From: a virus
Taxonomy: Duplodnaviria; Heunggongvirae; Uroviricota; Caudoviricetes
DNA: 64,000 bases
Strand: one strand, 5' to 3'
IMG/VR virus record: IMGVR_UViG_3300030339_000005
Shown here: in pieces, positions 2,197 to 48,282 of the stretch
Layout of the letters: each line of letters starts with the position of its first letter
Numbering within the stretch: the stretch's first letter is position 1
Notes under the pieces: generated by a model
What the model was told of the DNA's origin: nothing
Database searches by the model: none
What the model saw: the letters and a program-made list of their open reading frames with translations, nothing else
Position numbers and translations under genes: made by a program

Positions 2197-3093
2197 CTAT
2201 TTTTTAGGTTGTACTTTTTTTGGATTTTCAGTAACCACTGAGTCCTCAAAGTACGGAATATCTTTTGTAATTTCACTTTCCATTTCTGCAATAACTTGTT
2301 TAGGTTGCAATTCTGGATAAGTTTCACGTTTTATGGAATCTAATAGAGCCTTATATCTAAGATCTCTTAAGAATGTAATAGTAGCTTCCATAGAACCACC
2401 AAGCATTTTATCGTCATATTTATAAATTCCATCAACTCTTCTAACAACATGTCTATCGACAGCATCCATTAGGAATAATTGCATCTTCCAATCTTCTCCT
2501 TCATAAAGATCCATGATCTTTTTAGGATTTTTTTCTGCAATTTCAATCAAGAAATCAAGAACATCAGCAGGAATAGCATTTGATAAATTACGACCTAATA
2601 CTCTACATTTTTTAATTCTTTCGGCTTCAGGATCTTCGTAAATGTATTGCATTGCTTTGAATACAACTTGTTTTTTATTCATTTTAAATTGTGTAATTTC
2701 ACCAGGTCTTTCAACATATAAGTCAGCGACTCCATACTTTCTAGCCCCACCATCAACAATTAAGTTACCTTCTGCATCCCTTTGAAATCTATCTTTAGCT
2801 ATTCAATTACAATATTCAATTGCTTCTCAATTAGCTTTATCAACAACATCGTCTAAATTATAACGTGTTCCATCAATAATTTCAAAAACATGATTTGCAG
2901 CAACAAAATGAATTTCACCTCTGCTCATTTGTCTAACATCTTCTTCGGATAAAATCATATCTCCGTTTGAATCAACCGTTCTTACACAGTCTGGAAGTCT
3001 TCCAGTTCTAGGGTTTGGACAAGGTTGTATAAAGTAGGTTTGATTAACTTTTCCGTAAGCACTTCTAAGAATTATTTCATTATTCATAATCAT
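2197..3093 (-). CDS. hypothetical structural protein, about 298 aa, two in-frame TGA (2803-2805, 2827-2829); ends TAG
   Basis: ORFs 2197-2682 and 2827-3093 same frame; hand translation of the gap shows only TGA interruptions; context ...EYCN[TGA]IAKDRF... Confidence 0.6.
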
Positions 3094-3175
3094 ATATTTT
3101 GTATTTTCTAATTTCTATCTTTGTGTAAGAATCTAAATAAGGGAGAGGGCGAACCCTCCCCCTATTTGATTATTA

Positions 3176-4606
3176 TTAAACTTCTTCAATAATAAATGAT
3201 TTGTAAGGTGCAAATGCAGCAATACCAGAATAACCAGCTACGATCAATTTAGATCCTGCTACTGGGCTAGATACGATACCACTTGTGATACCATCTACTC
3301 CACCAACACCTGGGTATTTAGAAGTAACGAATTCAGCTCCTTGAAGAGTGAATGCAGCAATTGCTGGTTGATTTGTAGAAATATCCGGAGACATGTCTAA
3401 GCAAATACCATAACCTTTTCTATCGTATTCTTTTGTAAGAGCACGATCCACCATGAAAGTAACCATATTACCGGCAATTTCATAAGATGTAAATGTTCCA
3501 CCAACTTTAATAGGATTATCAGCTTTAACCATTGATTGCGTAGCTTTTGAATACATAACCGTTGGAGTTGATCCCCATAATTTTAACCAGTCACCCAGTG
3601 TTGAGTTAATTTGACCCCATAATCTATCATTTACGATAAATGTATAGCTATTACCTGTAGCATTTGCAGCTTTTTGGTTCATTTGATCAATAACTGTGTT
3701 GATTACATTTACGTTAAGTTTAGCGTATTTGTATTTAGAAGCAAATCTTTCGATTTGAGGAATAAGACCATCACCAGCAATCAAAGGACGTCCATCTTCA
3801 GTTAGAACTGTTGATTTACCATTAATATCCATGGTTGATTTACCTCATAATAGGTGATTGTTTTTAACTGTATTAAAGTTTTCTAACAAATCTTTTTCCA
3901 TTTTATTTAATTTGAAAATCTTTTCTTTAAGTTCGCCTGCGCCATCGCCTTCAGCAATTTTAATGAATTGATCTTCCATCTGAGCGTAACGAGCAGAATA
4001 AGAAATGTCATTTCTATGTTCTGTAATCCACTGACGATGTTTTTCAATGTTAGATTGATATTTTGTATATCCTTCTTCATGGTATTCAGGCATGATATTT
4101 GACAAGAATCTTGTCGTCATTCCTAATTGACATGCTGTTGAGTCTAATACTGAAGAGAAATCACTGTCAATTAATTGAGCAGTATATTCCCAGAAGTTAT
4201 CTGCTTTTCTGGTTGGGGTTGCTTTTACAATGCATTGCTGACGTGAGCCATCAATTTTGAAAGTATCATATTTTTCATAATATCTTTCTTTAAAATACAT
4301 TGTGATATCTGCTCCTCCTGCGCCATTACCCGTAGGTGCGGCTGCAAATTCGATTCTTTTAACGAATTCAACATCAATTTCCCATTCGATCATGAGAGAA
4401 TTAATTGGTTGAAATTTGTTAGCAGTTTTCGAGTTATAATAAATGTTCATTAAGGCTTCTGTTAAGAAGGTCGCTGTATTATGTGTATACATGCGAGCCA
4501 TAACTCCCATTAATTTAGGTCTTGTGCCTAAAAGTTTGTAGAAATCTTCATAAGTTCTACTATGAGCCAATTCAGGCTTTACGTTAACGTAACTTGCTAC
4601 TACCAT
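3176..4606 (-). CDS. putative major capsid protein, about 476 aa, one in-frame TGA at 3845-3847
   Basis: ORFs 3176-3832 and 3845-4606 same frame 12 nt apart; size and position after scaffold-like gene; no homology search done. Confidence 0.45.
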
Positions 4607-5595: not shown

Positions 5596-5851
5596 TTATC
5601 ATTTACAATTGTTTGGTATTTAATATCTATTTTAATCTTATATCTATATTTTAATTTTAGTAATACTCTACTATTTTGTACAAAATTACAACTAATATTC
5701 TGATTAATTTTCATAAATGAGAAATATTTTTAAATTTTATACCTAGAATACTTTTAGATAAGATTTCTTAAAAAATATATTCATACTAAATCAATAGTTA
5801 CGAGTAGCCAATAATTAGCTACTCATAACTAAGATTTGTAAATTTAATAAT

Positions 5852-6061
5852 TTATTCTTTTTTATTTATTAAACTTGGATCATCTATTTCAGTAAAATAC
5901 TCAGGTTTTTCAAGAAATGGTTCATCTAATAATCTTCCACCTATATAATAAGTATATCCTAAATGAATTACACTTCCACACAGTTGATTGTCAAATATTC
6001 TTTTAAATACTTTACCTTCATCTGCAATAATCTTTAATGTTGTTATTGTTTCTATTGTCAT
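5852..6061 (-). CDS. hypothetical protein, 69 aa
   Basis: ORF track; compact spacing downstream of giant gene. Confidence 0.4.
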   Translation of the reverse strand: MTIETITTLKIIADEGKVFKRIFDNQLCGSVIHLGYTYYIGGRLLDEPFLEKPEYFTEIDDPSLINKKE

Positions 6062-6072
6062 ATTATTAATTA

Positions 6073-9000
6073 TTAAGGAATAGCTGAAATAATTGTTGAT
6101 TTAGCACTTCAGTTTGTTGCTACTTTATAAGCATTTACACTTGCAGTTGGTACATAAATATGAATTAAATTATTAGTGTAAAGAAAATTACCTGCGTCTA
6201 ATGTAGGCGGAATAACAGTTTTAATAGTAACTGTATTTAACATTGACTGATTAAAAAATATAGATTGTAAAATAGTTTTAACTAGTCTTCCAAAAGTAAC
6301 TGTTTGTAAATTAGAATTACTTCCTACAAAACCATCTTGAAATGTTGCACATATATTAGGTAATATAAAAGTTTGTAACCTATTTAAACTATCAAATGAA
6401 TATTTAGGCATTACATTATCTTTCGTTATTCAATATTTATTTCCACTAACATTATAATAATTTCCATATGAAGTTATTCTAACTCCTGAAATATCAATAT
6501 TTTGAAGATTTCCTCCAGTAGTAGAAGATGCCATTATTTTAAGACAACTAATATCATCACCGTCAATTGTTCCAAATAAATTTATAGACGTTAAACTTAA
6601 ATAATTACTTCCTAAAACAGATCGTAATGTTCCAAATTTTGTAACAACCGTCATTGCTAATCCGAGAATTAAAGAAGAATAAGTACTTCAATTAGTTTGA
6701 TAGTTTGAAACACTTGTAGTTCTAACATTAATAGTAGTTAAAGCAGGACAATTATTAAAAATTGTTGTTCCAATTGCAGGAGCACTACTCGGAAGAGATT
6801 TAACTTTTAACAATCCTGTACAACCATTAAAAACATTGTTTCCTAAAGTCGTAGTATTATTTGGAATAATTACTTCAGTTAAACTAGTACAGCCTGCAAA
6901 AGCAGAATCTCCAACTGTTGTGCAATTATCAGATATGAATATATCAGTTAATCCCGTACAACCATTGAAAGCGTTTGCTCCAATTGAAGTTACTCAATTT
7001 GGTATTATTAAATACCTTAATCCAGTGCATCCATTAAAAGCATTTGCTGGAATTGTTGTAATTCCTTTAAAAAACTCAAACTCAGGAAATGTAGTTATTG
7101 TAGTTTGTCCTTGAAATACAGTTCCAATTGTTGTAGCAGTGTTTAAATCGTCTGGTTGAATTACTCCATCAACATTTGTATCAAAATTATTTAAACATAA
7201 AGTTCCAGTTGCACTATCCTCAAAAGACATTGTTGTTACCATTCAAGATGATTGCGTACTTCAATTTGATGCAGATTGGTAAGCTGCTAAATTTGCAAGC
7301 GGAACATATATTTTAATTGGACTCATTGCATTAAATACACCAGTTCCTAATGTTGGTGGTGTTGCACTTTTACAAATTATATATTCTAGGTTAGAACTTG
7401 ATTGAAAAGCATAACTACTAATTGAAGTTACACTACTTGGAATCACCACTCTTCTAAGATTAATACAAGATGAAAATGCATTATCACTAATATTTGTTAT
7501 AGAATTTGGAATTATAATCGAACTAAGTTTAGTACAACCTTGAAAAAATGCCTGAGATAACATAGGAACATTGTTTGGTAAAACAACATTTATTAATTTT
7601 TCACAACTTTGACAAACACCTCTATTTAAATTAGTTATATTATTATTAAAAAGAATAGTTTCTAATTTTGTATAAGAAAACATTACTGAACCAAGAGTAT
7701 TATTAATATCAATAGAATATCCGTTATAATATGATCTTCCGCCAGCTTTAACATTAGCAGCAGATATATCAAGATAATATAATTTGTATAATTTTGATAA
7801 TTCTCTTATTACATAAACATCATCTCCATTAAAATCTCCTGTAAGTTTTAAGAAAGTTAAATTATAAAAATCATTAATTTTACTTTCTAAAGTTCCTGCA
7901 GAAGCTACAGTTATTGTTCCAATTGGAAAAATAATACTTGCATAACTTGACCATGTTGTTTTATATAAATCTATACTTTCGTAAGGTACATATATGGCCG
8001 TTAAATTAGTCCCACTAAATACATTAGAACCTAAAGTAGGTGGAGTAGAAGATCAAAAAGATATATTAGTTAATGCTATACAATTAAGAAATGCATTATC
8101 TCCAACATTTGTTATACCACTTGGTAAAACAATTGAATTTAATAAAGAACATCCAGAGAATGTATTATTATTAATTATTGTTAATCCAGAAGGTAATTTG
8201 ATATTTGTTAATCCACAATTTTCAAAAGCATTTGTTCCAATAGTTAAAATATTATTAGGTAATATAATACTTCCAATTAGATTAGTACAGCCACTAAATT
8301 CAGAATTATTTAATAAAGTTAATCCAATAAAGTGATTAATTTCACTAAATGAAGTAATTCCAGTATTTCCTTGAAAATGATTAGCCAAAGTTGTAATTGC
8401 AGCAACTTCATTTCCATCAACTATTCCATTAACATTTGTATCTCAATAAGTATTAAATACAGTATTTACAGCAGATGATTGAAAATAAGCAGTTCCAATT
8501 GTTATTGGGATTGATTTATATTTTACTCCATTATAATAAGCATTTAATATTTCAACTCCACTCATCGAATTAAAACTTGTGGTACCATTACCATTAATAG
8601 TAATTTTACTATTTGTTGCAGTTCAAGTAGTTCCTGTTGATACGCCAACTGTTACAACACTTTTTACATCAGTATAATCTTCAGAAGATTGTATTATTAC
8701 AGGTTCAGAACTACCAATTATGGCATCATAAGTTTCTAATCCTTTTGGAATTGGATATCTTCCAGAATTAAATACTCAGTTTGTATCAGTAAAACCAACT
8801 CCAGAACTTCCAGTTCTCAGGGCTGTACCTATTAATTGCAGAGTTGTTTTTTCTTCAATTTGATTAGTAATATCTAATTGTCTTCCTGGATTTTTAGCTA
8901 CTTGTTTATCATAATAATTTGACAATAGTGTGCTAGATACTATTGTTTCATTAAATAATCCGATGATACTACTACTGTAAGTATAATATAAATCTCCATA

Positions 9001-12000
9001 AACTTTTCCTAAATTTAAATTGTAACGAATAGTTCCATTAACAGAATCCCCACTTATAACTTTTCCCACAATTCCACCTATATATTCAGCAGTTGAATAA
9101 ATTAGCCCATAATTAGTATTGTATTCAACAGTGCCAAATCTTATACTTCCTAAAATTCCACCACTTCCTTTACCTGAAACATTTCCCAGATTTGAGCAAT
9201 ATCTAACTCCACAACCATCACCAACAATTCCCCCTGCTATACCTGTAGTTGCATTTATATTTCCAAGATTTATACAATATTCAACTCTTATAGAATTATT
9301 TTGAGAACCTCCTGAACTAGTTCCTAAAATTCCACCTGATCCATATTGTGAAGTAATATTAACTTCATTTATACAATTACTTACTATTATATTTAGTTCT
9401 CCAGCAGATCCTACTATTCCAGCAACATTAGAATAACCACTTATTGTTCCAGAAGAATAACAATTATTAATTAGTGAATTTATTTTAACACATCCACATA
9501 TAGCCGACATATAAGGTTGAGTAGTGGTAGATAAATTAACATTTGTTACTTTTAGATTTTGTATAACTGTATCAGATACAAAACCAAATAAAGCATTTCC
9601 ATTAACGCTAGGATTCTTAATATAAAGATTACTTATCGTGTGATTATTTCCATTAAATTGTCCTAAAAAACAATAAGAATAATCATTTCCAATGGGTAAC
9701 CAATTTCCAATTCCTACACCACAAACAGTATTTAAATTTATGTCAGTAGTTAAATTAAAAATAACAGAGGCCGCCATTGCAGGTAAATTAAATCCCTTAT
9801 AATTAAACCCTATATGAGAATTTACTCCATCTCTAAGAGATACTAAATCTGATACAGAATCAACAGTTGTAGTTAATAGTATAGATAACTGAGTTGATTT
9901 ATAAATAATTCCATTTTTTGCTGTGGTTATAATTTCAGTTCCTGCACCAGTTATATTAACTGTGCCTAATGTATTGTTAATTTCGAGTGTATTATTAGTG
10001 TCATTTCATTCCACATTATCACCAACTCCTACAGTAAAAGCATTTACATTAGTGTAGTTAATCGAAGAATCTAAAAGTATAGTTTTAGATCCTGCGATGG
10101 CATCATCATAAGTTTCTAATCCTTTTGGAATAGGATAAGCTCCAGTAGTAAATATTCAATTATCGTCAGTTCATCCAGCTCCAGTAGATCCACTTCTTAA
10201 TGAAGTCCCAATTAACTCAGAGGTTAATTTACCTAAGCAGTTTACAGTATCAACATTAGCTAATCCTTTTAATAAAGTAAATTGTTTATCATAATAATTT
10301 AATATTGCATCACTTACTGTTTCTGCAATACTACCTCCAGATGTAGTACTATAACCAGATGTATTAACAAAATTAGTATTTAAACAAAATTTAATACGAC
10401 CAGAATACCCAGCCCCATTAATATATCCTGCAATACCACCATATCTTCAATTACTAGCAGCAGTTATAATACGTCCATTATTTATACTATATTCAATATA
10501 TTCTAAATACGTAGCCATACCAATAATTCCTCCTATACTATATGCACTACTATTAGTTGTTGTTATTGCTCCATTATTAATACATTTAGATATTTTTAAT
10601 CATTGACTTATAGTATTTCCACTAATTCCTCCCATATAAGGACTACTATTATTACTTGACAAAGAAGCATTATTAATACATTTCGAAATATTTAAAGTAG
10701 TTCCTCCTAGACTACCTATTAATCCTCCTATATATTGAGCTGCTGAAATGGTTCCACTTACTCTGCAATTTGTTATTAATGCTCCTGCAATTGCGTCCAT
10801 TTGTCCAATTAATCCTCCAACATAATATTGAGCATTAATCATAACATTTGTTAATGTAATATCTTGTATAATACTACTACCTGATACATATCCAAATAAA
10901 CCTATATAATTACCGCCTGTATTATTAAAATATAAATTACTAATAGTATATCCATTTCCATAAAATTTTCCTTTAAAATTATTCGTAGCATTACCAATGG
11001 GAATTCAATTTCCAATTCCAGAGCCACAAATCGTACTTAGATTTAGGTTATTCATTAAATAAAATGGAGTATTTAAAGCATAAGCTGGAACAGTTGCACC
11101 ATTATAATTAAACGATACTCCAGAATTTACTCCATCTCTAAATGCAATTAAGTCTGCAGTTGTATAAATTTCAAATTTTAATTCTAAACCTATATTATAA
11201 GTAGTATCAATAAGAGAAGATGCATAATTAAATGTTTTAGTTACAGCAGCATTTCCTCCAACATTTCCATTAAGAGCTGCATTTGAGCGTAATGTAACTA
11301 CTCCTGAGCCATTAGCATATACTTTTTCACTTCCATTTAATTGTATTCATGAATTAGTAGGAACTCCTCCTAAATCATATGTAATATTAAAAGTTCGAAG
11401 TGCTAAAGTTGTTACAGTTGTATTAATAGTTCTATTAATTGTAGAAGTAAAACTTCCACTATAGGATTCATGAATATCTGCACCATATGTAAATGTTACA
11501 TTAGCACTTACTTCAGTATAAATTTTATAAATAGAATCAGAAATTTTTACAAAAGTTTGATTAGAACTAAAATTAGAATTTGTTAATGTTAAACCTCTAG
11601 ATGAAGTAAAAGTTAATGTTGTTTCAACTAATCCTCCTCAATCTGTGGGAATTGTATAATAATCAGTTAATCCTGAGCAGTGATAAAAACAACCAGTATG
11701 ATTTGTGATTGCTGTTCCTCTTTCTCATAGTTGAGTAGTTCCATTATGAGGTGATGCAGAAGTAATAGTAGAACAACTACTAAAACAATCAGTGACATCA
11801 GTCATAGTTAAACTAGCAATAAAGTAATTTTCAATATTAGATAATAATCCGCAATTTTTAAATGTACTATTAGCTGTTGTAAGAGTTGAGATATCATCAA
11901 AAGAAGTACAATATCTTAAACTACTATTTTTAAATGCTGAATTAGCATTAATTAAACCGCTGTTTCCAAAGAAATGTGTTCCAATAGTATCTATTTTAGT

Positions 12001-15000
12001 GCTATTTTCAAATAATGAGGCAATTGAAGTTACTCTAGTAGATTGATACATAAAGTAATTACCAATTGTAGTAATATTAGTTCCTGTAAATATTCCACTA
12101 ATTGTAGTAAGTCCTGTATTTCCTCTTAAAAAATTATCACTAACATTTATAATAGCATTGTTAGAGAAAACTCCAGCTAAACTATTAATTAAATGAGACG
12201 CATATACAAAGTTTATAGGTGTAGTGACAAAAGCAGTTCCATTAAATACATCAGTTATTGTTACCAATAAAGGACAATTAGATAGTAAATTACTTTCAAC
12301 TGAAGTTAAATTATTAGCTCCCATAAATAATCCAGAAACTGTTGTAAGTTTAGGACAACTTTGTAAGAAATTATTTCCGACTGAAGTTAGTCCAGTATTA
12401 TTTTGAAAAGCATTAATAGCTGATAATAACTCAGATGAATTTTGCATTACATTATTTCCAACATCGAATGATCTTGTAATTCCAGCAAATGCTGAATTTA
12501 AAGAAGTAATTTTATTATTAATTAAGAAATTATCTCCAATAGTGCTTATAATACTATTTGCAAGCATATTTGTTGCACTATTAATAGATGGATTTGTACT
12601 TAAAAAATTATTAGGAATATTAGCAATTTGAGTATTACTAAATAAATTATTAATATTTTCTAATATATTGTTTATAGATCCACCAACTGAATCACTTAAT
12701 AATATGTCTGAGTTAATTATAGATAAATTAGTTAATCCTAAATCAGAAAATTTAAAACTGCTTAATTGTGTAGATCTTAGAAATCCTGATGGTAAAGTAT
12801 TAATATTTAATCCATTAAAAACTCCAAAAATTGTATTTAATGATCCGAGTTCAGAGATAATACCTGATGGAATAGACGTAATATTTGTTCCACCAAAAGC
12901 ATAACTTAAATCTTCTAAATTAGAAGCTGTTTCAAATATAGAACTAGGAATAGTAGATAAACTAGAATTATTAAATAAATTACTAGCATTTAGTAATTCT
13001 GGACAAGTTTGAAATAAATTAGATTGTGTTGAAGCAATTCTACTATTTTCAAACATACTTGAAGCATCTCTTAAATCTGGATTATTTACAAATAAAGATC
13101 CTGTAACATTTAAACCTAAATAAGTTCCATCAAATTCACTATTTGTATTTACAATGTTTGCAAAACAATTAATAGCAGTAGTGATTGGCGATGTTAAAAA
13201 TAAATTAGCAGGAATATTAATTAATTCAGCCCCATTAAATGCATCATCAATTGTTCTTAATTTAGGACATTCTGAAAATACATTTCCAAATGTAGATTTA
13301 AATACATTATGTGAAGTAATTCCTGTAATAACATCTCCTGTATAAACTGGAGTATATGTTTGAAGTCTTGCTCCCATAAATATTTCAGAAATATCTTCTA
13401 AATTATCAAATTTAACTAAAGCTCCACTCGGAATATTTGTTAAATAGGTACAATTTTTAAATAATCCCTTCATTTCAACTAAAGCAGTACAACCTTTTAA
13501 GAATGACGTGCTAATTGAAGAAATTTTAGAGCCCTCAAACAAGTAATTTAAGCTTGTTAATCCAATACAATTTTCTAAAAAATTATCATTAATTACTACA
13601 GCATTTTCTCTATTTCTAAATAGATTTTCAACAGTAGTTAAATTAGGACAATTTGATATATTTAACGAATTTAAACTTGTAAAGGATGTTTCATCAAAAG
13701 TTAAATTAGTTAAACCTGTATTATTTATAATTGTTAATGTTTGTAAAGCAGTATATACATTAGCTAAGTTAAATCCTAATGCTGTTTCAGTTATAGAAGT
13801 GTTAGATATATTTAATGATGTAATTATATTTTTAGTAAATAATAATGAGGTTAAAGAGTTTAGTCCATCTACATTAATAGCTTGTTGAAAATTACAATTA
13901 GTTACATTAATAATCTCTAATCTTGGATTAGTTGAGAAACTTGTTACTTGTACAGCAGAACTTGCAGCGTAAAATTCTTTAAGTCTTAAGCAAGTATTTA
14001 AACCTACTAAGAAAGGAGTTTGACGTCCTAATCCACAACCTGTTAAATTAAGAATTTCAAGATTAGTTGTTCCAGTTAAATTTAAATAAGAGTTTTGATC
14101 TGTAAAATTAGATATACCACTTAAGTTTAAAACTTTTAAATTAGGGCAACTACTAAACTTACCAGTTTTTAAAGCTATATCATTTAGTCCTTCTATTTCA
14201 GTAATTACTCCACTATTATAAATTCTTAAAATATGTTGAGTAGTATTTGAGTAGCTATAAGAAAATTCAACTACTGCATCACCACCAGCACAATGTTTAG
14301 ACATTACTTGGTTTTGAGCAAATGAAACTCGTATAAATGAGGCTATAGCAGTTTTAATTCTTAAAGTAACAGTTCCATTATAGAAATGTTCAACATAAGC
14401 CATATCATCAGCATCAGGAACATATCCCATAATACCATCAACATAGTCTAGTCTTTTCTTTAAGAAGTTCTTCATAAACATTAATTTATTACCTCTAGCA
14501 TTAGAGATATAATTGCGTTTATTGTTTATATCAGGATCTCCATCAAAACCAATATATTTATATACTGCATCTTTATTAAAATATCTTTCTCCAATACGAG
14601 CAACCATTTGTTTACTATATGTTTGAAGAATACTTGAATAATCAAAAGGTGCAGAAATTCATGAACTTGGTTCTCTTGTTCCTTTTAATGGGTCATATGT
14701 ACCAGAACGTAATTCTTGATAACGTCTTGATAATGCAGGTCCATAACATTTTGACATCCTTTTGAAGAAGTTAGTACCAAAACAGTTATATTCCCAACCT
14801 GAAGTTGGTGTTGCTGTAAAATAGTTTTGATTAGGATCTTCTCTATTAGCTCCAGCAATTGTATAAGGTCATTCAATATAAGGAGTTGCATATAGTCCCC
14901 CTTGTACGTTAGTACCAAAGGCAGTATCTATATCATAGAATACAGGATGAAATTTAATTCTTTCTCTATTCATTACTCCAGGAGTTTCTGTTTCAACAGA

Positions 15001-18000
15001 GTTTTCATCCCAACCTAACATAGTTAAGTTACGACCAACACTATCAGTTAAACAGAATGTAAAACAACATAAAACATAATCAATACAATTTCTTAAATCA
15101 AAGAATTTTTCAAATGTTAAACTATCAGCAAAAGCTTCATCAGTTGCATTTGCCATCCAATAAATTGCATTCAAAAAGTCAGTATGTTGTTGTGTAGCAA
15201 ATATTGCCTTATTTTTATTAATTCTATAAAAAGTTGATCCAGGATTAGTTAATGAAGGAAGTGTTGGACTATACGTTTCAGTTCTTTCGGACTCATTTGC
15301 TAAAAGTGAAGTATAGTAATCAACTACTTGATTTCCCGATCTATCAGCTTTTCCTGTCGTTTCTAATTTATCTCAAACTCAACGTAATGTTTTTGTAGAA
15401 TTAGGAGCATTTAAATCAAGTTCATGAGGATTAATTAAATTATAAGTTCTTGTTCAAACTCCATTTAAATATTCTTCTCAATGTCCAATTCCAAAATCAC
15501 CCGGATCTCTACATTCTCAGTCCATTACTAATTCAGCACCTTGTCTTCAAGCTAATTCTTGAGCATCATTTGTCTTATTTCAATAGTCTACTCCTTGTTG
15601 CCAAATGTGTTTTTCAGCATTATAAATTATTCCTACATGAGATTTATTAGTTGGGGAAGTTCCTAAATTCGAACCTTGATCATCAGTTGCATATCTGATT
15701 AAAGTATATGTCCCATGAGAATTTGAAATACCTTCAGAAATACTAATAGAAGATCATGTATAATCATGATAATCAGTTGATTTAATATTAGTTGTTTTAT
15801 CAACAGCTATGCCAATATATAAGTTACCAATAGGACTATTTTCGAATTGTGTATTAGTTTTCGAAACAGAGTATACAACTCATGTATATTTTCCATTTGA
15901 TTGTAGTAAACCTTCTGATGAATTAATTGGAAATCAAGTATAATCAGATGCTACTTTATTTTCAAAGAGTTCATTATTTTGAGCTGTTTCAATATATGAT
16001 GTTGATAAAACTCTTCCATAATAATCAACTAATAACTGTTCAGAACGCATATCAAGAAATTTACAATAACCAGATCTTAATTCTTCATGAACAGAGTCAC
16101 CATTAGATTCAGAACGATAAATATAATATCTTCTATTAGGATCACTCTTTTCACTAGGCATTGAATATAACTTTCTATGCTGCTTTAAATTCCAAGTATA
16201 TAATCCGGTAAATCGTTTTGAGTATCAAGTTTGATCAATTTTATAATCTCCATTCATAATAAATGGAAATCCATCAACAGCTAATCTTAATGGATATACT
16301 GGATATCTACTTAAGTTATCAACTACTGTATCAGGACGTGTTACTGTATAATTTATAAAAGGATTAGCTCTACCAAACACAGGAGTGAATTGTTCTGCAC
16401 CTTCTGAATTTTCTCAGTTAAATGGATATCTAAAGACTTGTTCTGATAATTTTGCTATAATTAGATTATTACAATGTGAACTATCAATATAGTTTGCTTT
16501 TAAATGATAAGAATCCCAATCTGGTCATGGTCTAACAATAGGATCTCCATTATTATAAACCATATTATAAAATTTTGGTGTTTTAGTTTGAGTTAGATCT
16601 CAAGCTTGACCATCAAAAATATCAATACCATAATTCTTAATAGGATAAGATAATGATGAATTACCTTGTAAGTCAACATCAACTGGAAAAGGCATAACCA
16701 TAGTTTGATAAGCTCCATCAAATTCTCCTATAGCTTGAGGATCAGGGATATAAGTATCAGCAATGTTTTCTTCGTTACCAGGATTAAAACTTAATTCTAG
16801 TTGAGTCATAATATCTTTTTGTATAGCACTTCGATCACCCTCCATATAACCAGAGGAAAGAATTGGGGTAGCTACACTATTAAGTTCTTCTAATAATGCC
16901 CGTCCCCCATCTTCAGGATAACATGCAATATAATTAGCTAAAATGTCATCAGTTGTTAAACAAGTCTTATAAACTCTTAAAAATCTAATTTTTGTTTCAG
17001 CAATTCCTACAACTTCTCCTAATAAATTTTTATAACCATTAATATAAATATGTTCGTCAGCTTGAGTTAAGAATAATTCTTGATCAACAAATGTTCCAAA
17101 TGATGAAATAACACCATTTAAATAAACATATACTTCTTTAGTATCTATATTAAAAGTAATAACAACATGAGCATATTCTTGACCTTCAACTCATTCTCCA
17201 TTCTTAGTAAGTACTCTACTATCACAGATAATAGGAACACTAATATTTGTTGATAATCCATTAATTCTTAACTCATTTGCAGTTACATAAATACCTACAG
17301 ATGGAGTAATTTCTGGTCTACCAATACTTAATTGATAAACCCCTTCTCCAACTAAAGCACCCTCTCTAATTGAGAATTCAATAGTTAAACCAGTTGTATT
17401 ATTTTCAAATCCTGCAAGTGGTGCATAATTAACTTCAACATAAGCTGAACCATTCATTGAAAGATCATCACCTAAATGTTGATTTGCTCCAGTAATTTCT
17501 CAACCATTTAATTCAGTATTAAATCCGTTAAGAACTGCATAATTATCTGGTAAATTTAATGTATATTTATTTTCTCATAATCCTCAATTTGGAGAATTAT
17601 TAGTTTTACCTTTAGCATTTAGATATAATTCTAATTTAGATATTGGTGTTTCTAATACAATATAAGAAGATTTTTGTTGTAATGATAGATTTAATAAATT
17701 AGTATTAGCCCAATAGGTTTCATTTTCAGGTAACTCTAATAGCTCTGACGTGTATCTTATTGAGATACTATTTCCACTATCAGGTAGTAATAATACTACT
17801 TCATTACCTTTTTGTGAAAGACTTGGTGCAGAAATATAATAAGGACTAACTCTTAATCCATTAATTTCTAACCATGCTTTAGATTGATAAGTATATTGGC
17901 CAATATATTCTGAATTTTCATCATAATAAATGTTTACGGGAAGTACAATAGTATCTCCAACATAATATGATAAATTAGTATTAAAATCTGTAGAAGAATA

Positions 18001-18978
18001 TAAAATTCCTGATTTATTTACAACAATGTTAATAGTAAGAGTATTAGAAATAACTCCTAATCCAGTTGCTGAGATTGTTAAATTATAATCACCAATTTCT
18101 GTAAACTCTCTAGGTATAGTATAGTTAACAAAGAATACTTGACCTGATATAAAATTTGCATCATTTGGAGTAAGTTTGTAATTAGAAACTTTATCAACTA
18201 CAGCTGCATAATCTTGATAAACTAAATGTCCAGAATTATTTGGATCATCTACTAACATTCTTCCAGATAATGTATAAGTTAAATCAATTGTATTTATAAT
18301 AGAAGACACTCCAAAACCAACAACAATAGGTGTATTTTGTCTATATGTTTGTTCAGACAAAAAGTTTGAAGTTAATGTAATTGTTCCAACTATAATAGTT
18401 AAGTTTAAAGTTGCAACTGAAGACTTTCCAAATTTATCTGTTACGTGAACATCAGAAAATACATAAGTACCTTCTGGTAATGTTACTTGATATAAATCTG
18501 AATCAGGATTATAGTACTCACTTCCATAAATTAAAGCTGTTAAGTTTAGAGTATTATTTCCATTATGTAATCCTGATAAAATAAAGGAAGTTTGTCCTTG
18601 TGCAATGTTAGGATTAGTTCCGGTTAAAGTTAACTCTCCTCCTTCGGCATCGAATAACTCAATGTCTAAAAGTAACTCATCACCTATTTTATAAATAAAT
18701 GTTGAGTTTTTAATTTTAATTATTGGTGCTGTATTATTTGTTGGAGTTGCTGCACCATATTCTGCTATATATTCAATTAATGCTTCAATAGAGTCAATTA
18801 CAACACTAGTATTAGAATCAACAATAATAGTTGTTCTTCCTAATTTATTTGTTAAAGCATCAAATGTCTGTTGTAAGGTATCTGCATTTTCATTAATTGC
18901 TATAACTACAGCATTAAATTCAGGTGCTGTTAAAGTGCTACCTTCTACTTTTGTTGGTATGTTTAAATGTGTTGTCAT
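6073..18978 (-). CDS. giant virion/tail protein, about 4300 aa, dozens of in-frame TGA; BspA-type LRRs (about 14600-11700 and 8400-6100), Gly-rich beta-helix-like repeats (about 11700-8800); ATG 18976-18978, true stop TAA 6073-6075
   Basis: Sixteen ORF-track fragments all share one frame; hand scan of every gap found only TGA, no TAA/TAG; normal TGG Trp codons also present. Confidence 0.6.
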
Positions 18979-18980: not shown

Positions 18981-19259
18981 CTATCTTGTTAAATAATCAT
19001 TTTCAGTATTAGTATCACCTGATAAGTTCAAAGTAAACGAATAAGTAAAAGCTCCAGATCCAGCAGATCCAAGTTTTTTAAATCCTCCATTAAATCTTAC
19101 ATATACGTTTTCATCTTCTTTACAAGCTACAATTAATCCATCATATGCATTCTCTATTGTATCTAATTCATCAACTGTTTCACATAATGTGCGAACATCA
19201 ATTGGGGATTCGCTTTTTACATCGAATCCCGCAATTATTTCAATTCCTTGTTTAGCCAT
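18981..19259 (-). CDS. hypothetical protein, 92 aa; ends TAG
   Basis: ORF track; 2-nt spacing to giant gene start. Confidence 0.5.
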   Translation of the reverse strand: MAKQGIEIIAGFDVKSESPIDVRTLCETVDELDTIENAYDGLIVACKEDENVYVRFNGGFKKLGSAGSGAFTYSFTLNLSGDTNTENDYLTR

Positions 19260-20457
19260 TTCTTGAACTTTTTATTTCTGCTGTAACTGTTGTTGAATCT
19301 GTTAATAAACCTATGTTTAGAGATTCAAAATCAATTGCGTTATTATTTGTATCTTGATATATATTAGATACTTTCTTTCTATTTCAAAGTGTATTTTTAC
19401 TATTTCCACTTATTACAGTTCCTTCATATGCAGATGCTGTAAACTCATCTGCTTGTATTCCAACCATATCTACATATCCAGCTAAGCTTGTTGTTGGATT
19501 TATTGGAATTGTTCCTGCTTCAATATCTCTATCTGTAAGTAATACAGATCCTGATTTACTTGCTAAGAAGAATATATTTTGAGATAATGCTCAAGTAACT
19601 TTATCACCAACTGCTTGTGCTCAATTTACAGATAAATCTAAATCTGGAACTGCTATAGCTCAATCTGATAATATTACTACATCAGAAGCAATTGCTGTTG
19701 GACTTAATCCTCTAATTAAAAAGTACTTATTTGCTCCAATAGTTCCTGATAAATTAGCTTTAATTCAACCAGTTTGATCAGCATTCTTTCAATAAAGTTT
19801 TGCATTATTTAAACTTAAACTAGTATTAGAAGAATTATATAAAGTAATAAAAGAATGACTAATTTTAATCTTAGTTTGTTCATTATCAATAATTGAAGTT
19901 GGTGAGAATACTTGTACTATTCTTACTACTTCAGCAACTGTTGGTAATGATTGTCCTGTAGTTACACTTAAAATAGAACTATCTGCATGATTGCCATCTA
20001 AATCGTAAACTCTAATAACAACATTATAAGTAGCATTAGTTGTTAATCCTGATATAGTTGCTGTTAAATCACTAGTTGTCGTGCGTGATACACCATTTAT
20101 TAATACATCATAATAGTCAATTCCATTATCATCCGTTGAAGCACCTCAAACTATAGTAAATCCTGTTGTTGTTACTATTGTAGCCATTACATTAGTAGGA
20201 GCTGTTGGTATAACACTTGTTGGATTTAAAGTATATCTAAAAGTTTCTTGATAAACAGTAGATAAATTATAGGGATTTTTTAATTGAAAATATACAATAT
20301 AATCTCCCTCCGCATTTGGAAGGGAGAATTCTACTGTATAATCTTCTGGCAATAACTGCCATTCAGCCTCTTCTATATTTGTTAATGATGTTCTATAATG
20401 TGTAGCACCTAATCCTTTTAGTGTACCCTTTATAAAAATATCATTAAACTGGAACAT
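19252..20457 (-). CDS. structural protein, about 401 aa, about 9 in-frame TGA; ends TAA 19252-19254
   Basis: Frame of ORF 20146-20457 scanned open down to 19252 with only TGA interruptions. Confidence 0.55.
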
Positions 20458-21535
20458 ATAAAGAATTTCTAGGTCTCATTGTAGGTGTAGCAATAATAAC
20501 TGATGCAGTCTTACTCTTAATACTTGTTGCAGTATAATCAGTTAAGTTATCAATTGAAGCTACAGTTGGATTAATAATTGTTTTAAGTTTCTGCTTTGAG
20601 TTATCATTATAATAATGAGCAATATTTTGAGGAACCAAATAATCTTCAACTAATGGAAGTATATTTGCTGTAGCACCATATAAATCAATAAAGTGAGGAG
20701 TTAATGAACCTGTATTAAATATTGTTGATGGAGGAGTAACTAATGCATTATCAGCTACAAATATTTCTGTCATTTTACTTGATACAAAAATTGTAGGAGC
20801 ATCTAAATCATAATAAAATTTTACTCCTGCATTTGCAGCATCTTCTCCTGCAATTGAAGTAAATTTAATACCAAAATTAAATGTAGCATCATCTATTGGA
20901 TTACCATTAAGAATATCATAAAAATGATTATTCATAATCTTGGCTCCTCTAATTAAGAAATATCTTCCAGGTTGAATTGTTCCACTTAAAGTAGTCTTAA
21001 CTCAATTTGTCGCTAATGCAGGATAATCCGGAATAGTTGTATATTCTGTAGCAGGTGCAACAATTGTTGATGTTGCATTTTGATGTCTTGTCCAAATAGC
21101 AACTGAACTTAAATCTATTGGACTTGCTGAATTATTATATAATGAAATTCATGAGTAATTACAATTAATTCCATCAGCATAAGTATCAGCATCAGCATTA
21201 CAACCATATGATTGTGCTATTCTTAATTTAGAATATAATGTAGAAACTGAAGGATTTAAAGATCCTAATAAAAGAACTTCTGAAGAAGCAATATCTGATT
21301 CATCTAATGAATTATTTAATTTACATTTTACATAATATGTTCCAGGAACATTTGGTAAATCATGTCTAACAACAAAAGTGCCATCTTCTTCAGGAACTGG
21401 AAGTCTTGTTGCAGTTGTAATTGCGTCTAAATTTGTAGTAGACTCAACGCTAGTTTCATGAGAAACTTTATAATGGGTTGCCCCAGTGCCATTAATTCTA
21501 ACGGCTAAGAATGGATCATTTACTTGTGTTGCCAT
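20444..21535 (-). CDS. structural protein, about 363 aa, in-frame TGA at 21149 and 21002; ends TAA
   Basis: ORFs 20444-20935 and 21149-21535 same frame; gap open; real TAA at 21539-21541 bounds the start. Confidence 0.55.
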
Positions 21536-21538
21536 GCT

Positions 21539-24232: not shown

Positions 24233-26683
24233 TTACTTTGTGGCTATTTGTCTTGAACCTATTGTATCTGATTGATAATGTACTCCAATAGAGTGTACAA
24301 ACGCATTACCTGTAAAAGCATCTCCCGTTGGTCTACTTAAAGCGAATACGCAAATATCCCCAATCTTCTTTCCAGTTCCTACAATAACTGAAGCAGCATT
24401 TGCTAATTGATGTGTACCAATGACTCCACTTCCAGCTTGAGAAATAGCCATTGATGTTGAAGTTGGAAAAACTGCATTTACATTAGTTATACTATATTCA
24501 AAAGTAAAATCACAACTTCCAGTATTAGTTGACTCTGGAGATCAGTGTAAATGTACATGTAGATCAGTTCCCTCTTTATATCCATGGGGTAATTCAAAGG
24601 ATCCATAAACAGTTTCTGTAGATGCGTTTTCAAATAAAACACCATAGATTCCATTTTTAAAGATAGCCATTGGAGGAACAGTTGCTCCACCACGTAAATT
24701 TGCCGCATGAATTATAATATCATTTCAAACAACTGTATCTAAAACCATAGTTTTTTCTGCACCTGTTGTAACATATAAATCCGTTGGTGCTGCAGCATTA
24801 GTTTTTATATTTGGAGTATTGATAATATGAGAATAAACAGCAGAGAATTGTTTTGATACACTTCCCATTGGTATTAAATTATCAAATGGGGGTAGTAGAT
24901 CATCTCTTGTATATTTAGATTCTGAAAATGTCTCAGATGAATAATCATCATTCATTATTACTGCATTAATAATGCCATTTCCATTCATATTTTTACTACC
25001 ATAATTATTTGTATCAATATGACTCTTAACAATTTGTCCTTGAGTTATATCAAACATATTATATGCAAATAAATCGCTATAATAAACACTATTTAGAGTA
25101 CAAGTAGCAATACTTCCACGAATATTGTTTCCATATAGAGAGCCATTATCAATAGTAGAATTGTATAATTTAGATGGTAATATACCATTTAAAAGAAAGT
25201 TATTTCCAATAATTGATGCTGTATTTGTTAAACTAATATTATAAATTATACCATACCCAATATTATTTAAAATAGAATAAGTTCCGCCACCAAATTCAGT
25301 ATCAATTATTACATTATAAAGACGTTCTAAATTATTATTTTCAAATTTACAATATCCTTCCGCATTTAAGTTTCAATCATTATATTCAACCAAGAATCCA
25401 TCACTAGGAACAGCGGCTTCACCAAGAGAGTTTCCCTTATTATCCCATTGTCTTGAGACATAACCATAAGTTCCTTGAGTAATATCATAAGTGCAATTAA
25501 AAATTTTATCTACATATCAATTAGTAGATGTATTAAGTAAAGTTCACTCAGTTGAATTTAGTGTTCAGGTATTAGTGGCATTTAAAGTATTGGTATTGCC
25601 TTTAGCTTCTCATAATCTTCCGCCCCAAATAGTCAGTGCGCCAGCAAATACAGTAGTATTTTTAACTCATACTCCAATAGAACTAGTCATTATTGGAGTT
25701 CCACTAACTGTTCCATAGGATCCCTTCATATATGTATATGGAACACGTCCAATACGTAATCCATTCGTAAAGAAACTAGTTGTAGTTGCTGCTTGAATAA
25801 TAATTCCACTGTCGTTGGGACGTCCCATAATTTTATATAATCGACCAGGTCTTAATGTTCCACCATTAGCAGCAGTTTTTGCATCACTTACTGTAATATT
25901 AACAATTGATGGCATAACTAAAGTTGATGTTCAAGTAAATGCAGGTTCTGTAACAGTTCCTTTAATCATATATAATCCTGAATCTTGTAGTTGTAAACCA
26001 CCTTCTCCAAAGTTAACATAATATCCTGGGATTGTTGTTAAATAAAAGCAATTTTTTACTGAAGTTGGCACTGTAGTTGGAGTTGCCATACCAATAAATG
26101 TATAGCCAGCGGTATCAGCTAAGACTCCTAAGTTATTAAGAAAGGATGCTTTATAAAAATCAGAAACAGGATTTTGATATGAAAGATATGTACTTAAATC
26201 ATCTCCTACTCAAGTTCAATTACTTCAGGTATTATTTTCAACATCAACTAAATTACGCATATAAATTTTACCAGTCTCAATATACTGAATTTGAATTGAT
26301 CCAGTAGTTTCTATTAAGTTACTAAATACAATTAATTTTAAATTTATTGTGTTATTTAGAGTAGTTTCTAAAGTGCCTTCATATAACCCAGATTCAGTTA
26401 AGTTATCTAAGGACTCAATAGTAAGTAATCCAACTAATTTAGCATTAACTAATGAATTAATATTAATTCTTGCTTGTCTTTTTTCATTTGATGTAAAAAT
26501 TTGATTTTCGTTAACTCCTACTTTCTTATCTAAAATTTCTGTAGTATTTGTTAAATCATCAACAACATCAATAATATCATTAATTTTACTAACAATAGCA
26601 TTTACTTCTGTTGAAGTTAAGCCGTATTCTGTATTAGGTAATGATTGTCTAGATCTTTTTTCTGTTATATTTAATGTTTCCAT
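24233..26683 (-). CDS. tailspike/tail fiber with right-handed beta-helix-like repeats, about 816 aa, about 15 in-frame TGA; ends TAA
   Basis: ORFs 24233-24451, 24725-25057, 25667-25915, 26225-26683 same frame; gaps scanned open except TGA. Confidence 0.55.
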
Positions 26684-26685
26684 TC

Positions 26686-28908
26686 TTATTCATTTTTAAT
26701 TTCATCATTACGAGGATTAGTATCAAGTAATTGAATAGCCTCTAACTGAACACGTTTCTTTTCCCACTCTAATTTTTCTTCATTATATTTACTTTCATCC
26801 TTAGCTTTAAATCATTCTAATTCTTTAGTAAATTGAAGACGATCTTGCTCTAATTTAATTTTCTCTTGATTTAAGAATTCAACTTGTTGTTTAAGTTTTT
26901 GAGCTTCAGAAGATACTTGTTGAAGTTGTTGATTTAATTGTTGAGCTTGTTGTTGTAATTTATTTAATTGATCATCCTCTTTCTTTTTCTTCTCAATAGA
27001 TGTTTTAACATCTTCTTTCATTTTTGTTAAGCCAGTTGCAGTAACGATTTCTATCAATGTTACTGGATCAATTAAATTATTCTTTGTTAACTCCATACCT
27101 AGTTGCTTAATAATTTCTTGTTCCTTAATTACTTCAGAACTATCAGAAATATTAATATCATAATCAGTTACTGAGTAATGTTCGGGAAGTGCTGTAAAGA
27201 TTTTATTTAATTTTTCACCTAAAACTAAAGTTCCAGAAATACCATTTTTATAGACACTCTTAGTTAAATTTAATATATCTAAAAGAATTTCTCGTGTTAA
27301 TAAGTCCATTACTTGATAATATTGTTTTGTAATATATCCAGATTGACGAACTCCTACTTGAACATTTGTAACAGCATCTTTTTGTTCAATTCCACCAAGT
27401 TTTTCTTTAAACACACCTGTAATCATAGAACAAGTTTCTTCATTTCTTTGAATAGCTAGATCAATAGCTTGAATAGTTTCTAATTTAATCGTATCATCAT
27501 AACCATTAAAAGAAGTGTTTCCCATAGGTAATCCTTCTTGAGAGGAATCAAATAATGCAATTCCAGATTTCTTATAAGCTTTTCACTTCATAAGTCTGTC
27601 TGCAGTTGTAGCTCCTAAAAATATAGGAAGATGAGCAACATCTAATCAATCTCCAGTTCCACCGGATTCAGAAATAACGTTATCTCTATAAAAATAAAGA
27701 ACATCATTCTTATCTTGTAAATTAGCAGTCTTTAAAATTAATGAATATGGATCTCCATTTCTATCTGAATAGAATAGACCATTTACAGATAGATCACATT
27801 CATATGGACTATCCATACTACGAATTGGATTCTCAATTTTACCTGTTGTAATATAAATTAAAGTTCCTATACGAGTCCCTTCATATCTATTAACTACTCA
27901 GTTATCTCCCTCTTTTTCAGTTTTTAATCACTCTACATCATAGACTGGAAACAATCTAAAATATTTGGATGTATTGCGTTCAAATGGCAATAGAGGAGTT
28001 ATTTCAAATCCACCTAGAATACCATCTGATATGGTATTTCCAGTTGTACTATCATAACTTCTCAAATATGTAGTTGTTGATCCATCAACAGAATAGTCTT
28101 GTAAATTTTCAAGCTCAGCTAAGTCCTCTCTTTTAAGATCTTTTCCATATTTAGCTAAGATCTGATCTTTAGTCATATAACGACGAATAACAGATCTATA
28201 AGACTTTTTAAGGTATGGTGACTCAGGATTTCTATCAATAAAAGTATTAATTGGATTAAGTACTTCTAATTCAATGTTAGTGTTACTTGGTGAAGCAAAG
28301 ACTTTATAATAACTTGTTCCACTAATTAATAGATCAGTTAATAATAATTTTCTTTTATTACTAAAGTCTACTGCTCTTGATTGCATTGTTCAATCGGTAA
28401 TATTTTGTCCAGCAATCTCATAATCTGAAATAAAATTTCTCTCAGTAGATTGTTGTAATTCATCTAATTTAGATCCAACTTCTGCATTTGGGCCAGCTGG
28501 TCCAGGAGTTCCTGGGCCTTGTTGATCATTAATAGCACTATATAATGTAGTTTTTAGATGGCGATTTAATTCAGCAGCCATTACATTATTTACTTGGATT
28601 TGTCTATCCTTAAAGATACTTGATAATGTTTCTTTATCTTTACAAGACACTCTAGGAAGAACAGGTGTTGATAAGTATTCACCAATTAATACATCAATAT
28701 GTTTTCTAGTAAGAGGAACAAATTCTACTGAAGTAGGAGTTCCAATTCCATAATTTTCTTCCAGATGTCTAAATTGTTCTGGATCTCGTTTACCATGATA
28801 ATAATTATATGCCTTAATGATTTGAGTCTTTTCATAGACTAATTCATTAATTGCTCTATCAATATTTTCAATGATTTCTTGTTCTGTATTATTCTTCTTT
28901 TGAGTCAT
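26686..28908 (-). CDS. portal protein (putative), about 740 aa, in-frame TGA at 28390, 27928, 26812 and others; ends TAA 26686
   Basis: ORFs 28390-28908, 27928-28386, 26812-27525 same frame; frame followed to TAA; size and position next to terminase. Confidence 0.5.
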
Positions 28909-44207: not shown

Positions 44208-44286
44208 AATTTGGGCATTAAGAGGATACACCCTTCGGGGTGTATCTCTCTCTTAAAAAATAGTATATTCACTAAAGCTTATTAGT

Positions 44287-45239: not shown

Positions 45240-45241
45240 CC

Positions 45242-46275: not shown

Positions 46276-46276
46276 C

Positions 46277-48270: not shown

Positions 48271-48282
48271 TCGTTTAATACT

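Follow-up and report, generated by a model that had tools for sequence, protein, structure and literature searches.

Recoding of TGA to tryptophan in late genes has been described in gut phages (Borges/Peters et al.; Yutin et al. 2021; Zeta-crAss paper 2025). CotH kinase-like domains also occur in phages, in which they are fused to C-type lectins diversified by diversity-generating retroelements, and they have been termed "currently unstudied" (Benler et al. 2021). The CotH protein of Bacillus subtilis is inactivated by mutation of D228 or D251, its catalytic and metal-binding aspartates (PMC7821199). Here we describe a gene from a 64,000-nucleotide stretch of DNA of a tailed phage (IMG/VR record IMGVR_UViG_3300030339_000005; the whole stretch is called the window) in which TGA recoding and a CotH-like domain occur together in one very large predicted protein. 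The gene, called the giant gene, most probably encodes a 4,301-residue tail-tip fibre or adhesin of a gut phage that reads TGA as tryptophan and is distantly related to Crassvirales; we put the probability of this reading at roughly 0.68. Its first 2,447 residues (57% of the protein) form a core, which is an ordinary member of a family of phage proteins 2,000–3,400 residues long. The remaining residues, 2448–4301, are an add-on of β-helix and leucine-rich repeat (LRR) modules.

The open frame of the giant gene

6073–18978, minus strand: giant gene, with ATG at 18978–18976, TAA at 6075–6073 and 4,301 sense codons

An initial annotation, made from the DNA alone, had proposed that this segment is a single recoded open reading frame (ORF) free of TAA and TAG. 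The coordinates prove to be exact, and the frame, which is on the minus strand, contains 39 TGAs, no TAG and no internal TAA. In the five other frames, TAA and TAG have a combined frequency of 0.079 per codon, which corresponds to a log10 probability of −154 for their absence from 4,301 codons (P ~1e-154). The longest run without TAA or TAG in 200 shuffled controls was 168 codons, the background being sequence at 29% G+C. Therefore, the open frame did not originate by chance. If its 39 TGAs are taken as stops, the frame falls into 40 pieces, among them 19 with at least 60 residues, and not into the sixteen fragments counted originally. Codons 1–464 are free of TGA. The predicted protein, in which Asn, Thr and Ser are abundant, has a mass of 469 kDa and a pI of 4.8. 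A hydrophobic signal-like segment was not found at its N-terminus, and neither HExxH nor HxxEH motifs occur anywhere in the 4,301 residues.

DNA repeats inside the giant gene are no longer than 77 nucleotides and no more than 90% identical, those longer than 30 nucleotides are at most 78% identical, and there are no tandem arrays of note. Because the internal repeats are short and divergent, repeat-driven collapse or mis-joining of the assembly is unlikely. An independent MEGAHIT contig (L011; ENA ERZ27248696, 6,714 nucleotides) corresponds to window positions 23036–16446 at 99.95% identity; it spans the genes upstream and, from its start codon, ~840 codons of the giant gene (~2.5 kb), including several TGA sites.

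Predicted reading of TGA as tryptophan

When TGA is translated as a sense codon, the summed length of the minus-strand ORFs of at least 200 residues increases from 6,450 to 12,475 residues; translation of TAG as a sense codon gives no gain in the minus-strand long-ORF content. A 92-residue ORF (18981–19259, minus strand), a gene call shared by contig L011, terminates in TAG two bases ahead of the ATG of the giant gene, and TAG is therefore a functional stop in this phage. The ratio of TGA to TGG is 39:10 in the giant gene, 10:5 in the ORF of the large terminase (TerL), 6:1 in the portal ORF and 13:2 in an 816-residue ORF. The corresponding ratios are 0:10 and 0:6 in two right-hand ORFs on the plus strand, 586 and 782 residues long. 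In-frame TGA clusters in the genes for virion structure and lysis, and the other genes fit the standard code.

The residue specified by TGA can be read from homologous positions. The two closest homologues of the giant gene, L006 and L007, are 47–50% identical to it. Fourteen TGA sites of the giant gene align with L006, which has tryptophan encoded by TGG at nine of them, TGA at three, and phenylalanine and glutamate at one each; in L007, six of the seven aligned sites are tryptophan encoded by TGG. Five crAss-like terminases have W, F or Y where TerL has TGA, and at one of these sites all five have W. Paralogous modules within the giant protein read GIGNxIPIGN, in which x is the TGA codon, and GIGNWLPIGN, and the positions "GWxPIG" and "W......GYPxL" of the GLUG consensus coincide with TGA codons of the giant gene. 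An example of a peptide of the giant protein in genetic code 4, with tryptophan at TGA, is GIGNWIPIGNATNNFK. Glycine, serine, selenocysteine, cysteine and tyrosine were rejected as the meaning of TGA: close homologues carry tryptophan at these positions and never those residues. As judged from these alignments, TGA is a tryptophan codon in the late genes of this phage.

37818–37913, minus strand: tRNA(UCA), which reads UGA (ARAGORN)

This tRNA is 96 nucleotides long and of type II, with a 5-bp D stem, a 4-nucleotide D-loop, a 6-bp variable-arm stem, G73 and an encoded CCA. Its top-scoring Rfam family is tRNA-Sec, at 38 bits, which is below the gathering score of 47. The tRNA(UCA) is the candidate decoder of all 39 TGA codons, and probably the one that is used. 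A second call by ARAGORN, a 98-nucleotide "tRNA-Cys (ACA)" at 48785–48882 on the plus strand, has no tRNA counterpart in Rfam at the gathering threshold; it may be a false positive or a further atypical tRNA.

The core belongs to a family of putative phage tail proteins

Bacillus phage G gp353 (2,055 residues) aligns in BLASTP with residues 454–934 and 1259–2447 of the giant protein, up to the final residues of gp353. Bacteroides phage DAC16_86 (2,657 residues) and the TAG-recoded gp56 of the crAss-like phage cr113_1 (2,646 residues), whose record is labelled "internalin-like; receptor-binding protein", are likewise collinear with the core. The core closes at a motif, "IP..W" (residues 2443–2447), that marks the end of the family, and its W is the TGA codon 2447; past this W, gp353 ends after one residue, and DAC16_86 and cr113_1 gp56 end after six. 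Four successive segments of the core match PHROG 9915, whose function is unannotated, in order. A HMMER search with residues 1441–2417 retrieved 877 cluster representatives at E ≤1e-3, 238 of them at ≤1e-10; the longest among the best 150 of the 877 has 3,394 residues, a length that the giant protein exceeds. Three metagenomic proteins, P0139, P0140 and P0141 (2,210–3,104 residues), are 32–37% identical to the giant protein and collinear with it from residue ~59. The N-terminal part has homologues (P0001 and P0002) of 47–50% identity, and a scan of IMG/VR with the N-terminal 464 residues found no relative. The N-terminal domain of ~460 residues in the initial annotation, with its 464 TGA-free codons, is not unique as had been supposed, given the homologues of 47–50% identity and the 32–34% identity to P0139–P0141 from residue ~59.

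The genomic positions of these relatives place the family in the tail module. The order of genes in the siphophage encoding P0139 is capsid, connector, head closure, tail tube, a 1,374-residue tape measure (PhageMin_Tail), an 804-residue protein in the position of Dit, and P0139. On the contig of P0140, a tail-tube gene is followed by a gene of tape-measure size (1,326 residues), a 307-residue gene in the Dit position and the gene of P0140. P0141 is flanked by portal-side genes and a holin. The giant protein is read as a tail fibre or adhesin because P0139 and P0140 are at the tail-tip position, because it contains an insert of tail-fibre type and because of its content of lectin, LRR and β-helix domains. 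The earlier proposal of a tail protein is supported by the collinearity of the family, by the tail-module position of the relatives and by the 30–42% identity of the insert to tail-fibre proteins.

Homologue L006 (JGI 3300020045, Ga0206662_1000284), which is TGA-recoded and 47% identical to the giant protein, loses collinearity at about residue 1,262, at position ~8300 of its locus. Beyond this point its genes, one of which encodes an endolysin, are inverted; the cause may be rearrangement, truncation or misassembly, and L006 was not used there.

Domains of the core

17569–18978, minus strand: residues 1–470, helix (~18–46) followed by a β-sandwich array
16879–17541, minus strand: residues ~480–700, ConA-like lectin (Laminin_G_3-like; Pfam 22.3 bits, E 1.6e-4, cut-off 27.6)
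16069–16701, minus strand: residues ~760–970, N-terminal part of the CotH-like domain, with the motif YHLKANYIDSSH
15526–16068, minus strand: residues 971–1151, insert of 181 residues within CotH, composed of tail-fibre-type repeats (YTW... motifs)
14299–15525, minus strand: residues 1152–1560, C-terminal part of the CotH-like domain
13609–14181, minus strand: residues ~1600–1790, LRR tract A, short classical LRRs (weak matches to Pfam LRR_4, LRR_EndoS and other LRR families)
11638–13608, minus strand: residues 1791–2447, LRR tract B, with a period of ~26 residues (autocorrelation peak at lag 26)

The AlphaFold2 model of the TGA-free residues 1–464 is of low confidence, with a predicted local distance difference test score (pLDDT) of 62.6, and only the secondary structure was taken from it. 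Residues 1–470 are likely to be an attachment and shaft part. The match of the lectin-like segment to Laminin_G_3 is below the cut-off; the corresponding segment of phage G gp353 exceeds it, at 29.9. The insert at residues 971–1151 is 30–42% identical in tblastn to annotated tail and tail-fibre proteins of Vibrio, Streptococcus, Enterococcus and Microcystis phages, and matches PHROG 2189 ("tail protein") and PHROG 19691 ("virion structural protein"). It forms a gap in the family alignment A1, in which phage G gp353, DAC16_86 and the CotH homologues do not have it.

LRR tract A is collinear with positions 1140–1484 of PHROG 9915, and tract B matches positions 1454–1719 at E 5.5e-29. The region of the two tracts (residues 1600–2447) has no match to LRR_5 at E up to 1 and none in NCBIfam; it has weak matches to generic LRR families, and its relatives give weak matches to DUF285. 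The assignment of BspA-type LRRs in the initial annotation therefore stands for the C-terminal residues ~3511–4301, where LRR_5 scores 220 bits and the period is 23 residues, but not for the middle of the protein (~1600–2447), where the period is ~26 and LRR_5 is absent. That first domain inventory had recognized LRRs and β-helices but overlooked the ConA-like lectin, the CotH-like domain, the tail-fibre insert and the relationship to the family.

The CotH-like domain scores 23.6 bits against Pfam CotH over residues 1254–1392, just under the cut-off of 23.8, and phage G gp353 scores 60.3 bits. A profile of seven family sequences (A1) matches B. cereus CotH (PDB 5jd9) at E 1.1e-9 over residues 32–354 of the 359-residue chain. 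Single-sequence phmmer searches of the PDB gave nothing useful for the CotH region or a GLUG module, and the assignments required the family profile for CotH and a fold search for GLUG. In the alignment, D1312 (in LTDSVGRN) pairs with FDGFVHN of 5jd9, and D1349 (in FYDID) with WDYD, which makes them the equivalents of D228 and D251 of B. subtilis CotH. With both catalytic aspartates kept, the domain may be an enzyme. In phage G (gp352–gp353) and cr113_1 (gp57–gp56), a very large phosphatase or metallophosphoesterase gene lies directly ahead of the family member with CotH and LRRs, so that a pairing of kinase-like and phosphatase-like giant tail genes is seen in very different phages.

The C-terminal add-on of GLUG and BspA-type modules

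11179–11637, minus strand: residues 2448–2600, β-rich linker at the start of the add-on
10099–11178, minus strand: residues ~2601–2960, GLUG β-helix module 1 (Pfam Glug 19.8 bits, cut-off 20.5)
8719–9867, minus strand: residues ~3038–3420, GLUG β-helix module 2
6076–8448, minus strand: residues 3511–4301, four BspA-type LRR_5 modules (~3511–3690, 3691–3915, 3916–4106 and 4107–4301)

The linker has no match to domain families in Pfam or NCBIfam, and is shared with P0140 only, at 29% identity across residues 2315–2598 of the giant protein. The add-on is open without TAA or TAG over 1,854 codons and holds 17 of the gene's TGAs, which sit at tryptophan positions conserved across the GLUG and LRR_5 families. 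Because the frame is open over this length and the 17 TGAs match conserved tryptophans, the add-on has been under selection in this frame and code. A 38-nucleotide string from the junction of core and add-on had no exact match in scans of IMG/VR and the JGI metagenomes.

The Gly-rich β-helix turns noticed in the initial annotation correspond to the two GLUG-motif modules. Module 1 has 472 homologues at E ≤1e-5, many of them with PF07581, and its best homologue, from a metagenome-assembled genome of Bacteroidales, is 33% identical over 84% of the query. The TGA-free residues 2992–3400, around module 2, give an AlphaFold2 model with a pLDDT of 83.7 and a predicted template modelling score of 0.84. 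Foldseek matches this model to 3n6z, a "putative IgA1 protease" of B. ovatus (3e-7), and to the IgA1 proteases 7uvl (1.2e-4), 6xja (4.9e-4) and 7uvk. The Pfam score for Peptidase_M26_N is 14.7 (cut-off 27.7), and the Pfam scan has no match to Peptidase_M26_C in the giant protein. The function of an M26 protease was rejected because the HExxH motif is missing; judged from motifs and the predicted fold, the GLUG modules are binding or structural elements and not proteases.

The C-terminal LRRs match Pfam LRR_5 at 220 bits (cut-off 27.7; E 8.9e-66) in four stretches with a period of 23 residues. In the PDB, they match 4fs7 (9e-44) and TpLRR 6mlx (1.5e-19), as well as 4gt6 and 4h09. Each of the four modules is closed by a cap, "...YVP....Y....W". 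A dockerin- or EF-hand-like loop, "DxNxDGxIxxxD", lies ahead of each module, at residues ~3513, 3715, 3933 and 4137 (window positions ~8400, 7800, 7180 and 6570, minus strand), and the loops may bind calcium, to go by the motif.

The LRR_5 modules share only 25–39% identity with their closest relatives in genomes, which are distributed over Oscillospiraceae, Muribaculaceae, Prevotellaceae, Spirochaetales, Bacilli and further groups. A recent capture from an identifiable host was rejected, given these low identities and the spread of the relatives over several phyla. For the same reason, the idea that the protein mimics the surface of its host is not sustained: neither a donor nor a mimicked host protein can be named. 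By their sequence relationships, the LRR_5 and GLUG modules belong to a pan-gut repertoire of adhesins. The earlier remark that a phage receptor-binding protein made of BspA-type LRRs is unusual is supported: LRR_5 is present in 24 of 50,697 deposited phage records, nearly all of them unannotated faecal contigs, and in two PHROGs too. The add-on, with its two GLUG and four LRR_5 modules, is, from the comparison with the retrieved relatives, a new element on a known but unstudied family.

The phage and the neighbourhood of the giant gene

The block of minus-strand genes at 1–37,700 encodes a major capsid protein (MCP), portal, large terminase, endolysin, exonuclease and PhoH. The MCP-like protein is 52% identical to those of two ~120-kb faecal contigs named "Bacteriophage sp.". 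TerL is crAss-like, with 27–31% identity to Suoliviridae and other crAss-like phages and 46% to MT835470. By these marker genes, the source is a gut phage distantly related to Crassvirales, and the crAss-like TerL suggests a host in Bacteroidota. A bacterium using code 4, such as a Mollicute, was rejected as the source of the window, which contains phage hallmark genes and in which TGG, and not TGA, is the codon used by the long right-hand ORFs.

19252–21538, minus strand: two upstream recoded genes, of 401 residues with fn3 (Pfam 30.5 bits) and of 363 residues, Lamin-tail-like (LTD 23 bits, below the cut-off)
5853–6061, minus strand: 69-residue ORF, starting 12 nucleotides past the stop of the giant gene
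5795–5831, minus strand: terminator-like 17-bp hairpin with a T-run, 3' of the 69-residue ORF (one found, 0.1 expected)

The giant gene is placed in the late block, with the fn3 and LTD-like genes on one side and scaffold-like and MCP genes on the other. The products of the fn3 and LTD-like genes are likely to be tail partners of the giant protein; further candidate tail proteins in the window are encoded by the 816-residue ORF (24233–26695) and a 335-residue ORF. The putative terminator hairpin marks the end of a transcription unit, ahead of the scaffold-like and MCP genes.

The composition of the window changes sharply to the right of the recoded genes, from a G+C content of ~0.29 in 1–37700 (minus strand) to 0.36–0.43 in 44000–64000 (plus strand). 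The long ORFs without in-frame TGA in the right-hand part include those of an HTH/DnaD-like protein, an AAA_5 ATPase, a DUF2828/TROVE-like protein and a 782-residue SPFH/Band-7 protein; the DUF2828/TROVE-like protein is 45% identical to a protein of a Leptolyngbya phage. The segment 44000–64000 looks like a standard-code block adjoining the recoded late block.

Proposed role and alternative explanations

The full-length protein would be produced only late in infection, after UGA has become a tryptophan codon, probably by way of the tRNA(UCA). The N-terminal helix and β-sandwich array would attach the protein to the tail and form its shaft, and the lectin, the CotH-like domain and the two LRR tracts of the core would be the part shared with the family. 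The two GLUG β-helices and four LRR_5 modules, fused to the end of the core, would form a long, multivalent and non-catalytic binding arm, which most likely contacts structures on the surface of the host cell.

Several points weigh against this account. The sole suppressor tRNA detected is a selenocysteine-like type II molecule, unlike a tryptophan tRNA. At 90% readthrough per UGA, only about 1.6% of chains would, by simple arithmetic, be completed across 39 sites; because so few ribosomes would finish, near-complete reassignment of UGA is implied. A kinase fold on the exterior of the virion would be without ATP. The literature on phage G gp353, the crAss "internalin" receptor-binding protein and BspA-type LRRs in phage tails yielded neither a characterization nor a proteomic or structural study of any family member, and the receptor-binding label of cr113_1 is an annotation and not experimental. 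The artefact of collapsed repeats that the initial annotation had itself considered is countered by the short and divergent repeats and, for the first ~840 codons, by contig L011; for the gene 3' of these codons, including its 3' two-thirds (8.7 kb), an independent assembly was not found. MT835470 and MT835492, the nearest GenBank relatives (46–52% by MCP and TerL), lack a homologue of residues 1–1600. In this lineage, the giant gene is thus not a structural requirement that has been conserved, but an accessory, lineage-specific acquisition. In MT835470.1, the TerL and MCP genes use the standard code, and ORFs of middle size occupy the interval between TerL and MCP that the giant gene fills here; because MT835470.1 has neither, recoding and the giant gene are both recent and lineage-specific.

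If the CotH-type kinase were competent, the family would be a widespread class of tail-tip proteins that, given the phosphatase or metallophosphoesterase neighbours in phage G and cr113_1, could perform phospho-transfer at or across the host envelope during adsorption or entry, with the six-module GLUG/BspA arm widening or retargeting the host range. This extension of the adhesin reading is unlikely as it stands; it includes the reading of 39 TGAs by a selenocysteine-shaped tRNA(UCA) that carries tryptophan, which may be new. The retained D1312 and D1349 would also suit an effector that is packaged in the virion and ejected into the host, where its kinase would phosphorylate host or phage proteins with cytoplasmic ATP and its repeats would serve as scaffolds. 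Podophages of the crAss-like and N4-like types eject very large virion proteins, such as the N4 virion RNA polymerase and those of ΦcrAss001, the terminase of the present phage is crAss-like, and the phosphatase or metallophosphoesterase neighbours in phage G and cr113_1 suggest a theme of phospho-transfer. However, modules of the lectin, LRR, β-helix and BspA kinds characterize proteins that bind targets outside the cell, the relatives in two siphophages are at the tail-tip position, the insert matches tail fibres, and the upstream neighbours here carry fn3 and LTD-like domains and no phosphatase, all of which make an ejected effector highly improbable.

The position of TGA codon 2447 at the conserved "IP..W", where the relatives end, raises the possibility that the gene does not produce one functional protein. 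It might yield a ladder of N-terminal fragments, of which the product up to codon 2446 would be about the length of the family, or its 3' part might be mis-joined or belong to a decaying gene. The add-on is missing from all retrieved relatives, L006 gives way to inverted genes near residue 1,262, and the independent assembly stops ~2.5 kb into the gene. Nevertheless, 21 TGAs precede codon 2447, which is therefore not special, and the add-on, as described above, is open over 1,854 codons with its 17 TGAs at conserved tryptophans. Long near-identical repeats that could mis-join the assembly are absent, and an ordinary small ORF and a terminator come after the gene; we consider this explanation decidedly doubtful. 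Contact with the host cell could also be the task of other tail proteins, for which the window offers candidates (the 816-, 335-, 363- and 401-residue ORFs), with the GLUG and BspA-type modules binding mucus, IgA, epithelium or other bacteria instead and so keeping the phage in its gut niche, a reading akin to the "bacteriophage adherence to mucus" model and to the mimicry of the initial annotation. Such modules are known from adhesins and from the N-domains of IgA1 proteases of mucosal bacteria, and the absence of the gene from the MCP and TerL relatives is as expected of an accessory function. However, no specific similarity to a host protein or an animal-binding protein was found, the best genomic relatives being 25–39% identical and from scattered taxa, and the family core is at the tail-tip or receptor-binding position in siphophages; an adhesin directed at the environment is accordingly very unlikely, and the tail-tip adhesin directed at the host cell is the preferred reading.

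Significance and comparison with known systems

Recoding, giant tail proteins and binding modules of LRRs and β-helices were each known before, and the current understanding of them stands. The giant gene is an extreme test case for recoding: its 469-kDa product demands 39 consecutive UGA readthroughs, with an oddly shaped tRNA as the only decoder in view. The annotations of the crAss "internalin-like" receptor-binding protein, phage G gp353, DAC16 gp86 and PHROG 9915 are now joined in one family, and its tail-tip position and conserved CotH-like domain offer a way into the role of kinase folds in phage tails. The add-on illustrates how gut phages can recruit the bacterial BspA/GLUG adhesin repertoire as modular binding arms, which bears on the prediction of host range for uncultured crAss-like phages.

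Proteins of the PHROG 9915 type, at 22–37% identity, share with the giant protein the order of β-sandwich array, ConA-like lectin, CotH-like domain, short LRRs, LRRs of ~26 residues and "IP..W", and all are encoded in late or structural blocks. The giant protein differs from them in its 1,854 additional residues (two GLUG and four LRR_5 modules), which are in none of the relatives retrieved. From its distant relatives it further differs in its own first ~58 residues, in TGA recoding and in the 181-residue CotH insert, which gp353 and DAC16_86 do not have. The neighbour of gp353, phage G gp352, contains LTD, Metallophos and Mtd_N domains, and similarly one upstream neighbour of the giant gene has a sub-threshold LTD-like match.

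The similarity to CotH kinases (PF08757; 5jd9) consists of a profile match over nearly the full chain and of both aspartates essential for activity; in the giant protein, however, the domain is one of many in a 469-kDa chain and is interrupted by the 181-residue insert. Unlike the phage fusions of CotH to C-type lectins (Benler et al. 2021), the giant protein has no detected C-type lectin domain. With the M26 IgA1 metalloproteases (ZmpA/B; 6xja, 7uvl, 3n6z) it shares a predicted right-handed β-helix, and PF07581 is present in homologues, but it is without the M26 catalytic domain and HExxH. The 23-residue repeats strongly match those of BspA-type LRR proteins (Tannerella BspA, TpLRR 6mlx, Bacteroides 4fs7, PcpA 4cp6). 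In contrast to those surface proteins, the modules described here, at 25–39% identity, end a late protein of a phage, which has neither a signal peptide nor a cell-wall anchor.

For recoding, the comparison is with the gut phages using code 4 (crAss-like epsilon and zeta, Agate and Jade). They have in common with the present phage in-frame TGA at tryptophan sites of structural and lysis genes, a block next to these that fits the standard code, and a phage-encoded tRNA(UCA). The suppressor of Zeta-crAss has been reported as a Trp/Arg isotype (Zeta-crAss paper 2025), whereas the tRNA(UCA) of this phage has a long variable arm and a 4-nucleotide D-loop, with tRNA-Sec as its best Rfam match.

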